Below, piece by piece: positions 33,720 through 34,244 of a stretch of DNA of 64,000 nucleotides (position 1 is the stretch's first letter; each line of letters opens with the position of its first letter). The stretch is from an uncultured Candidatus Saccharibacteria bacterium (GTDB lineage Bacteria > Patescibacteriota > Minisyncoccia > Phycocordibacterales > UBA9973): NCBI GenBank assembly GCA_964502615.1, contig CAZCXF010000002.1, positions 24,236 to 88,235 on the forward strand. The letters are read 5' to 3'. The notes under the pieces were generated by a model. It saw only the letters and a list, made by a program, of their open reading frames with translations, was not told where the DNA came from and did not search any database. Position numbers and translations under genes: made by a program.

Positions 33720-33964
33720 ATAAAAATAGAGCCCGTCACTTTTTACAGCAACGGGCCAAATTGGCTTCTTCTGATTTTATACAAGCATCTTTGTAAGGAG
33801 ACACGACGGAGGGTAAAGAACGTCCGGACACTCTCCGTTTCTTACAAAGCCCCAACGTCCTTCATTGCACTTGTATTATCATGGAAGTTACAATTTGAAC
33901 TTAATACTACTTATTTATATAAATAAAGCAAGCTTTGCAAAAATGTATTTTATATAGTAATCTT

Positions 33965-34125
33965 TTAATATAAGCGTTGAAGGAGATATCACTCCTGAGC
34001 TTGGGGAAGAACACTCAAAAGAGTAAGTAGAGCCCTATTAAATGAGAAGTAAACAAGGTGGTACCACGAGAAACTCGTCCTTGTATAGCAATTATTATAA
34101 TTGTTGTACGCGGACGAGTTTTTTA
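33965..34125 (+). promoter_or_regulatory. Putative T-box riboswitch leader (Ile-specific?) with intrinsic terminator, upstream of ileS
   Basis: AAACAAGGTGGTACCACGAG at 34051-34070 matches the T-box consensus AAnnnGGGTGGTACCGCGG. Its 3' half overlaps the 5' arm of a long terminator hairpin (GAGAAACTCGTCC ... GGACGAGTTTTTTATT, 34068-34127), the classic antiterminator/terminator arrangement. An upstream hairpin GGAG-ATATCA-CTCC (33982-33995) exposes AUC-A, an Ile codon followed by a purine. It sits in the 525-nt non-coding region before an aminoacyl-tRNA synthetase gene. Confidence 0.5.
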
Positions 34126-34244
34126 TTATCCAGAGTTATTATACAAATTATATTCTGAAAAAAGTCCTCGGATCTCCTGTCCATACGCAAGCTCCAGGCA
34201 GGCCAGACATTTTTTCCGAAAATAATTTGTTTCATTAAATCAAA

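Follow-up and report, generated by a model that had tools for sequence, protein, structure and literature searches.

The intergenic region between argS and ileS in a 64,000-nt stretch of contig CAZCXF010000002.1 (hereafter the window), from an uncultured Candidatus Saccharibacteria bacterium, very probably encodes the 5' leader of the ileS mRNA (33970–34127), a tRNA-Ile-specific T-box riboswitch that controls ileS by transcription attenuation. The gap between the end of argS (33719) and the start of ileS (34245) measures exactly 525 nt, as given in an earlier first-pass annotation, which had called a T-box here from the sequence alone. That call is borne out by a match to the Rfam T-box model RF00230, by conservation and covariation in relatives, by the agreement between specifier and regulated gene, and by folding. 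From its sequence motifs, mutually exclusive folds, conserved and covarying helices and matching specifier, the leader appears to be a genuine Ile T-box that looks functional and belongs to a compact, transcription-controlling class of the Candidate Phyla Radiation (CPR). T-box riboswitches are a textbook case of RNA-RNA recognition and a candidate antibiotic target.

In a permissive Rfam search, RF00230 aligned end to end to 33968–34085 with 47.5 bits (E-value of 2.6e-9 for the gap alone and 2.5e-7 for the whole window, both strands), and this leader of ileS was the sole T-box match within the window. Two sets of related loci were used for comparison. The genome set comprised 80 loci from species-representative genomes, retrieved with the N-terminal half of IleS. 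The metagenome set comprised at least 120 loci (L081–L200), retrieved with a pattern that fixed only GGGAAGAA, GTAGANCCC and GGTGGTACC and placed no constraint on Stem I, specifier, helices or downstream gene. Counts of the leader class beyond the 80 genome loci refer to the metagenome matches listed. In 11 of the 80 genome loci, the exact string GGTGGTACCRCG precedes ileS by no more than 250 nt, and those loci contain no other exact match. Chance origin of the T-box match is excluded because of this placement together with the whole-window E-value. The coordinates of the leader, its parts and its surroundings are collected in Table 1.

Table 1. Features of the argS-ileS region and neighboring genes (window coordinates)
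Feature	Position	Strand	Basis or remark
ileS T-box leader	33973–34127	+	RF00230, model R1 and folding
Promoter-like site	33935–33963	+	−35 TTGCAA 33935–33940, 17-nt spacer, −10 TAATCT 33958–33963; read from sequence
Stem I, ultrashort	33974–34000	+	Rfam alignment; covariation
Specifier AUC (Ile codon) with conserved 3' purine A	33988–33990; A 33991	+	3' edge of Stem I terminal loop
Stem II with S-turn (loop E)	34003–34036	+	Fold; motif conservation
Purine-rich linker AUUAAAUGAGAAGUAA	34037–34052	+	Conserved; between Stem II and helix A1
Antiterminator	34053–34084	+	Rfam alignment, covariation, minimum free energy fold
Intrinsic terminator	34071–34127	+	Folding; arrangement shared by relatives
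Conserved imperfect palindrome/long hairpin in the 5' untranslated region	34143–34230	+	ACAAAUUAUAUUCUGAAAAAAGUCCUCGGA, variable centre, GCCAGACAUUUUUU..AAAAUAAUUUGU; z-score −3.4
Terminator-like hairpin after argS	33730–33757		More canonical on the minus strand, where CUAUUUUUAU comes next
Orphan GC-rich hairpin	33789–33849	+	Fold; region z-score −1.8
argS (arginine--tRNA ligase)	31971–33719	+	Open reading frame; NCBIfam TIGR00456, 370 bits (cut-off 262)
ileS, regulated gene (type-2-like IleRS, 1192 amino acids)	34245–37823	+	TIGR00392, 835 bits
metG	45238–46680		Third aminoacyl-tRNA synthetase gene of the window

Anatomy and alternative folds of the leader

The base helix of Stem I pairs G33974-C33975 with G33999-C34000, and its 4-bp top helix pairs GGAG (33982–33985) with CUCC (33992–33995), closed by the 6-nt terminal loop AUAUCA (33986–33991). 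The first-pass annotation had singled out the hairpin GGAG-AUAUCA-CUCC as presenting an Ile specifier, AUC followed by A; this hairpin was placed at 33982–33995, and its specifier tracks the gene (see below). At the base of Stem I, a 3-nt bulge (GUU) and tandem G.A/A.G pairs (G33979-A33980 with G33997-A33998) would form the kink-turn (K-turn) typical of T-boxes. Alignment positions G7, A8 and G25-A26-G27 of this K-turn were invariant or nearly so in the seed alignment described below, and the flanking helix covaried. Stem II consists of a base (GGGG with CCCU), a GAA (34009–34011) facing AGUA (34026–34029) and a distal hairpin (ACUC-AAAA-GAGU), the tip of which differs in length between relatives. 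The GAA and AGUA, lying inside GGGGAAGAA...AGUAGAGCCC, are consistent with the S-turn of T-box Stem II. The motif GGGAAGAA...GUAGANCCC was present in 12 of 12 leaders found via IleS homology, where no search-pattern bias applies.

The linker between Stem II and the antiterminator (UAUUAAAUGAGAAGUAA, 17 nt) is unstructured. It retains the Stem III-flanking purines of other T-boxes (AGAAG...AAA), without the Stem III hairpin itself. The IIA/B pseudoknot is also missing from the window leader, in which 3–4 nt lie between Stem II and the AAAUGAGAAG linker motif, as is the distal Stem I platform of interdigitated T-loops that contacts the tRNA elbow. The truncation of Stem I and the lack of both Stem III and the IIA/B pseudoknot had all been overlooked at first pass.

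In the antiterminator, helix A1 (6 bp; ACAAGG 34053–34058 with CCUUGU 34079–34084) and helix A2 (5 bp; ACGAG 34066–34070 with CUCGU 34074–34078, loop AAA) are separated by the 7-nt T-box bulge UGGUACC (34059–34065). The T-box sequence AAACAAGGTGGTACCACGAG lies at 34051–34070, just where it had been reported. It had further been said to overlap the 5' arm of the terminator; instead, it is that arm (34071–34084 and beyond) with which the T-box sequence pairs in the antiterminator, in the usual T-box geometry. The terminator hairpin (34071–34121, ~24 bp, arms ACTCGTCC at 34073–34080 and GGACGAGT at 34112–34119) therefore has as its 5' arm the 3' half of the antiterminator. The U-tract announced for 34121–34129 is present, about 2 nt from that position, as six U residues at 34119–34124 with AUUAU next to them.

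Folding of both conformations, one of the checks suggested at first pass, reproduced the proposed switch. Unconstrained RNAfold of 33970–34090 returned Stem I, Stem II and the bulged antiterminator. The antiterminator was the minimum free energy fold when the 3' arm of the terminator was omitted (−9.7 kcal/mol for the module alone), and it gave way to the terminator (−28.2 kcal/mol) when this arm was added. The two folds are mutually exclusive. The leader region 33960–34135 had a folding z-score of −5.3. In 87 of the 91 leaders among the matches listed, the 3' strand of the antiterminator likewise takes part in a hairpin with a U-run behind it; the four leaders without this arrangement were L091, L098 and L120, all three close to a contig end, and L142.

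The terminator ends ~120 nt upstream of the ileS ATG, and no Shine-Dalgarno (SD)-like sequence lies in or beside the hairpin. The output therefore appears to be transcriptional. It is very unlikely that the leader acts on translation instead, with an alternative helix sequestering the ribosome-binding region as in the short-Stem-I ileS T-boxes of Actinobacteria. All short and ultrashort Stem I T-boxes known from earlier work are reported to be translational (PMC7583486, PMC11297988), and the hairpin and U-run of L113, L125 and L134 end ~0–10 nt from the start codon, where a dual effect is conceivable. The 6-U tract of the window hairpin, its distance from the ATG and the lack of an SD-like sequence nearby argue against translational control, as does the recurrence of hairpin and U-tract across leaders in which the distance from hairpin to open reading frame (ORF) varies from ~30 to 260 nt. 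The terminator of the compact class spans 41–51 nt, compared to 28–29 nt in L096, L106 and L133, which are GC-rich leaders before ValRS with a long canonical Stem I and were used as outgroups. From these three outgroup sequences we speculate that the longer terminator, with an extra 20–30 nt before the competing strand emerges, could offset slower tRNA capture.

Upstream of Stem I, a promoter-like arrangement (TTGCAA, 16–17 nt, TATnAT) occurs at an equal distance in L004, L006, L007, L011 and L022. The following course of events takes transcription start, tRNA binding, the sensing of charging and termination from the established T-box mechanism. A weak sigma-70-like promoter would start transcription near 33970. 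The nascent RNA would fold into the K-turn and the 4-bp Stem I, showing AUC-A in the terminal loop, beside the S-turn Stem II, and the anticodon GAU of tRNA-Ile would pair with AUC. If this tRNA-Ile were uncharged, its 3' NCCA would pair with UGGU of the 7-nt bulge, which would stabilize the antiterminator and allow read-through into ileS. If the tRNA were charged or absent, the strand CUCGUCCUUG would be taken by the more stable terminator hairpin, and with the U-tract, transcription would stop ~120 nt before the start codon.

Conservation, covariation and specifier-gene agreement

The relatives in the genome set, where their taxa are named, are nearly all CPR/Patescibacteria (Paceibacteria, Parcubacteria, Nomurabacteria and similar), and four given as 'uncultured Gammaproteobacteria' probably bear a wrong label. 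Compared to the window protein, IleS was 48–75% identical in the 80 genome loci, and the IleS homologues behind most of the metagenome leaders listed were 38–84% identical. The genome set was chosen through the protein, and conservation of RNA motifs in it is therefore unbiased. The leader was conserved before ileS in 12–14 of the 80 related CPR genomes and in >100 metagenome loci. All 11 relatives with the exact GGTGGTACCRCG carried the modules of the window leader in the same order.

A seed alignment (alignment A1) was made from 18 insertion-free leaders, with annotated helices for the Stem I base (2 bp) and top (4 bp), the Stem II base (3 bp), A1 (6 bp) and A2 (4 bp). Stem II tip pairs, the register of which was inconsistent in MAFFT, were excluded from the model and from the covariation count. 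The covariance model built from this alignment, R1, gave one match in the window, at 33973–34086, with 117 bits. Among the 80 genome loci, 12 gave strong members and 2 gave weak ones (L066, and L080 from a Magasanikbacteria genome), and the remaining 66 gave no match.

Covariation in homologous leaders, also put forward as a check at first pass, was found in both alignments. In the seed alignment, 97.4% of cells were paired and 9 pairs were changed on both sides, values reached by 0 of 500 shuffles, and slid controls had at most 52% of cells paired. In the R1-aligned set of 92 matches (84 distinct sequences), 96.2% of cells were paired and 13 of 19 pairs were compensatory. Both-side changes affected 150 cells across the 84 distinct sequences, compared to 35.6 in shuffles, and again 0 of 500 shuffles were as high. 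The covarying pairs of Stem I were 2-31, 3-30 and 12-15/23-26, and 7 of the 10 modelled pairs of A1 and A2 were compensatory. Note that these sequences are related and that their alignment follows the model; the slid controls still agree in direction with the covariation counts, as does the number of pair types.

The distal terminator shows unusually high sequence conservation, and a 38-codon ATG ORF (34042–34158) overlaps the T-box sequence and the terminator. Both would suit a leader-peptide attenuator or a protein-binding operator in place of a riboswitch. We consider such a device the least probable of the alternatives, since base pairing governs conservation, and the T-box bulge, the K-turn, the S-turn and the match of specifier to gene belong specifically to the T-box mechanism. 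The leader-peptide version was rejected because relatives carry hairpin insertions of many lengths within the ORF.

The specifier was read with an automated parser, from model alignments for the insertion variants, and by inspection by eye. For 70 distinct IleS-linked leaders among the matches listed, the parser returned AUC with A or G as the next nucleotide. In nearly all other IleS-linked leaders, which are hairpin-insertion variants, AUC[A/G] was visible in the model alignments, and the exceptions were leaders cut at contig ends or with a divergent 5' end. Leaders in front of other genes, the latter assigned by NCBIfam, presented other triplets: GUC before ValRS (L140, L146 and L142), GAC before AspRS (L083, identical to L093, and L103) and AAC before AspRS (L113, identical to L164 and L177). 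AAC was also read in L199, where an HD-domain ORF precedes aspS. The loop triplet with its 3' purine thus tracks the amino acid of the regulated gene.

Two side observations concern these downstream genes. The aspS leaders L103, L120, L113 and L199 are closely related and compact, with the triplets GAC (Asp) or AAC (Asn) one nucleotide apart. AAC before aspS could be explained by a non-discriminating AspRS able to charge tRNA-Asn as well, and the occurrence of both triplets by genomes that differ in whether tRNA-Asp or tRNA-Asn controls aspS. In L105 (2032–2460, minus-strand orientation), a small ORF stands between an Ile-specific compact T-box and ileS, with ileS immediately behind it. The product of this ORF (86 amino acids) had no NCBIfam match, resembles a three-helix membrane protein and may be a co-regulated transporter.

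Within the class, an unstructured linker of 15–17 nt was counted in roughly 55–60 of the 84 distinct leaders among the matches listed. In a minority of leaders, AGAAGU and AAA enclose a hairpin that occupies the place of Stem III and has the expected flanking purines. A few (L032, L104, L113, L083, L138, L066 and L080) have GGG..CCCGUUAUAG after Stem II, resembling the F-box of a IIA/B pseudoknot. The window form is both the most reduced and the commonest form of the class. As a separate observation, GC-rich hairpin modules recur at differing sites, namely the Stem II tip (L004, L022), the Stem III position (L006, L134) and the A2 loop (L006, L088, L134), with CCGCCUUCG...CUACGGCGAG and GGUUCGAC...GAGCNUGAGA as examples. 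This recurrence suggests a shared structural module or small mobile hairpins.

Several observations weigh against a T-box with transcriptional output. At the gathering score, Rfam reported only tRNAs in the window and no T-box, the 47.5 bits of RF00230 being about half of its gathering threshold of 93 bits. The absence of most of Stem I accounts for the low score, and in the Rfam alignment 4 nt stand in for 74 Stem I model positions. Other compact leaders behaved alike in Rfam, with 12 scoring 31–62 bits and 7 of the 19 in the panel missed at an E-value of 0.01. The Rfam scan recommended in the first-pass annotation would therefore wrongly reject the leader at the gathering score and recovers it only when run permissively. 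Transcriptional T-boxes are described as generally needing, for kinetic reasons, a long Stem I with its elbow-binding motif, and Stem III with its flanking purines is described as forming, together with the antiterminator, the unit that senses aminoacylation (PMC7583486). This leader lacks the elbow platform, the IIA/B pseudoknot and Stem III, all three of which are regarded as functionally important. The −10 hexamer is weak (3/6), and the promoter was unreported by a consensus scan. No tRNA-Ile gene, sought as the pairing partner for anticodon and discriminator, was found in the window or in 60 related loci. In the metagenome set, the search pattern fixes parts of Stem II and of the bulge, and their invariance there is by construction. 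Finally, L002 (74% IleS identity) keeps the argS-ileS order (around 3950–4010) with a gap of ~50 nt and no T-box, and L003 likewise lacks the leader. Presence is thus patchy even at 74% IleS identity, and since these close relatives do without the leader, the element is dispensable in the lineage. On sequence comparison, it appears to have been gained or lost recently in the clade of L002 and the window.

Some of these observations would also be expected if the leader were the decaying relic of a canonical T-box, with tRNA sensing lost, a constitutive or leaky terminator, and ileS expressed by read-through or from another promoter. Such a relic would lack the elbow platform, the pseudoknot and Stem III, and the complete loss of the leader in close relatives and the reductive nature of CPR genomes would suit it. 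We regard this explanation as even less likely than control of translation. The equally reduced form is found in >50 distinct leaders whose IleS proteins are only ~40–65% identical to that of the window. Moreover, the linker is highly conserved, the helices are compensatory and the specifier fits the gene for four codons, none of which a relic would be expected to keep.

Relation to known T-boxes

The closest counterparts of the Ile T-box leader in the window are the T-boxes with short or ultrashort Stem I of Actinobacteria (Mycobacterium tuberculosis, M. smegmatis and Nocardia farcinica; 'class II' in TBDB), which also regulate ileS. The two share a truncated Stem I without the elbow platform, AUC-purine ~15–18 nt from the 5' end, a basal K-turn, an S-turn Stem II and the bulge UGGNACC between A1 and A2. 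Within the CPR class, the intermediate forms with a small distal hairpin (L115, L116, L119, L148 and L179) recall the 'intermediate' Stem I lengths of PMC7583486. The two groups differ in their output, which in the window is an intrinsic terminator with U-tract and not an SD-sequestering helix. In addition, the window leader has neither the IIA/B pseudoknot nor Stem III, both of which are described as functional in the Actinobacterial T-boxes (PMC7583486, PMC11297988). Compared via the descriptions in these reviews, the compact class further differs in its CPR/Patescibacteria hosts and in also serving valS and aspS.

Canonical transcriptional T-boxes, such as those of Bacillus subtilis tyrS and glyQS, follow the same logic before an aminoacyl-tRNA synthetase gene, in which the specifier pairs with the anticodon, the bulge pairs with the tRNA 3' end, and antiterminator and terminator exclude each other. 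Their Stem I measures ~90 nt with the specifier in an internal loop, whereas that of the window measures ~22 nt with the specifier in the terminal loop, and the compact class is without the distal platform and Stem III. The glyQS T-box is without Stem II and has Stem III; the compact class shows the reverse.

The 2020 review PMC7583486 assigns a Stem I of intermediate or ultrashort length to T-boxes that act on translation, most of them Actinobacterial, and the dichotomy of long transcriptional and short translational T-boxes was repeated in 2024 (PMC11297988). Short Stem I being known from translational Actinobacterial ileS T-boxes, a transcriptional version in CPR is therefore new when set against the descriptions in these reviews. 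Our literature search found no paper linking T-box riboswitches with CPR or Patescibacteria. The closest IleS relatives of the window are CPR/Patescibacteria, in keeping with the earlier remark that a T-box would be notable in a reduced-genome lineage. On balance, we favour the view that the window leader is the founding example of a minimal T-box class widespread in CPR/Patescibacteria, which would sense charging during transcription without elbow contact, pseudoknot or Stem III, and which would serve at least ileS, valS and aspS.

If this is true, the elbow platform and Stem III are dispensable for kinetically controlled T-box switching, and the long terminator stem may compensate for them by delaying the competing strand. 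The leader, with a predicted tRNA-binding part of ~112 nt, would then be the smallest natural RNA to read tRNA identity as well as aminoacylation. Its combination of an ultrashort Stem I and a terminator, without Stem III or pseudoknot, makes the long-Stem-I rule testable with a 160-nt template, and the very small leader can serve as a scaffold in structural studies and in the engineering of tRNA sensors. T-boxes in CPR would also widen the range of this regulation to a deep, genome-reduced branch of bacteria, and would imply that ultra-small, host-dependent bacteria still monitor the charging of at least some of their own tRNAs. T-box regulation is probably under-annotated in CPR genomes because the Rfam gathering threshold misses the class and the short-Stem-I model of TBDB has been applied to Actinobacteria alone.

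Other hairpins of the gap and genomic setting

The gap contains three further hairpins, two upstream of the promoter-like site and one downstream of the terminator. The first-pass annotation had noticed extra GC-rich hairpins and suggested that they may be Stem I- or Stem II-like elements. This finds no support: the hairpin at 33789–33849 lies upstream of the promoter-like site and is absent in relatives, and the element at 34143–34230 lies downstream of the T-box terminator and is a separate element, not part of the T-box.

The element at 34143–34230 is ~90 nt long, with a core of A-run, GC-rich hairpin and U-run, and ends 14 nt before the ileS start codon. Homologues were found in about 12 loci (L001, L087, L090, L100, L114, L136, L141, L152, L153, L156 and L161 carry such an element), always between the T-box terminator and the ileS ATG among the matches listed. 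Its flanks are nearly invariant, although the IleS proteins of these loci are only 40–65% identical to that of the window. L136 and L153 have a second copy, 39 nt upstream of argS. The element has 28 consensus pairs, 6 of them compensatory, and had no Rfam match in the permissive search. It could be a hairpin for stability or translation, a second attenuator or a palindromic insert of the enterobacterial repetitive intergenic consensus (ERIC) type. We presume a likeness to palindromic repeats of the ERIC and repetitive extragenic palindromic (REP) type and to bidirectional intrinsic terminators. With ERIC/REP repeats the element would have in common a length of ~90 nt as an imperfect palindrome, a transcribed intergenic location, sequence shared across species and more than one copy in some genomes. 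The element differs from them in its fixed place, 31–54 nt upstream of the start codons of ileS and argS.

The hairpin at 33730–33757 is not part of the leader and probably marks where the argS transcript ends. The orphan hairpin at 33789–33849 also lies outside the leader, since the promoter-like site is downstream of this hairpin; no repeat of it was found within the window and no counterpart in any of the 200 loci. Rfam matches near it (Betaproteobacterial toxic sRNA, 22.8 bits, and anti-hemB) were rejected as chance-level and driven by the argS-proximal terminator. A 39-codon minus-strand ORF with a TTG start (33736–33855) overlaps both hairpins. For this ORF, or for a small RNA ending at the 33757–33730 terminator, we found no promoter-like site and no conservation in the 200 loci.

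Intergenic gaps of the window have a median of 7 nt, and the argS-ileS gap ranks third largest; the largest contains tRNA genes. The gap had been called GC-richer, which is true of a local peak at 33750–33900 (GC 0.45) and not of the gap overall (0.36 vs 0.347 for the window). No T-box leader was found for argS or metG, and ileS is thus the only one of the three aminoacyl-tRNA synthetase genes of the window to have one.

The IleRS of the window carries an inserted His_Phos_1 domain (Pfam PF00300, 123 bits) at amino acids 539–703 (window 35859–36353). The insert separates the two halves of the catalytic domain and retains an RHGE motif. Segments homologous to this insert were present in 66 of the 80 related genome loci and in at least 59 metagenome loci, with or without a T-box. 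We know of no described function for this insertion.

Elsewhere in the window, a sub-threshold Rfam match to the rimP leader (53225–53331, minus strand; 35.1 bits vs a gathering score of 47, E-value of 0.063) sits in a 409-nt gap (53041–53449), which is among the few other long intergenic gaps; another, of 536 nt, spans 62059–62594. A tandem duplication of ~620 nt at 11408–12574, composed of direct-repeat pairs of 279 and 272 nt with 81% and 76% identity, probably represents a tandem pair of paralogous genes. A perfect 25-nt inverted repeat with 5-nt spacing at 7331–7385 (AATAATAAGAAAAAATAAACTCCGA / TCGGAGTTTATTTTTTCTTATTATT) resembles a bidirectional terminator.

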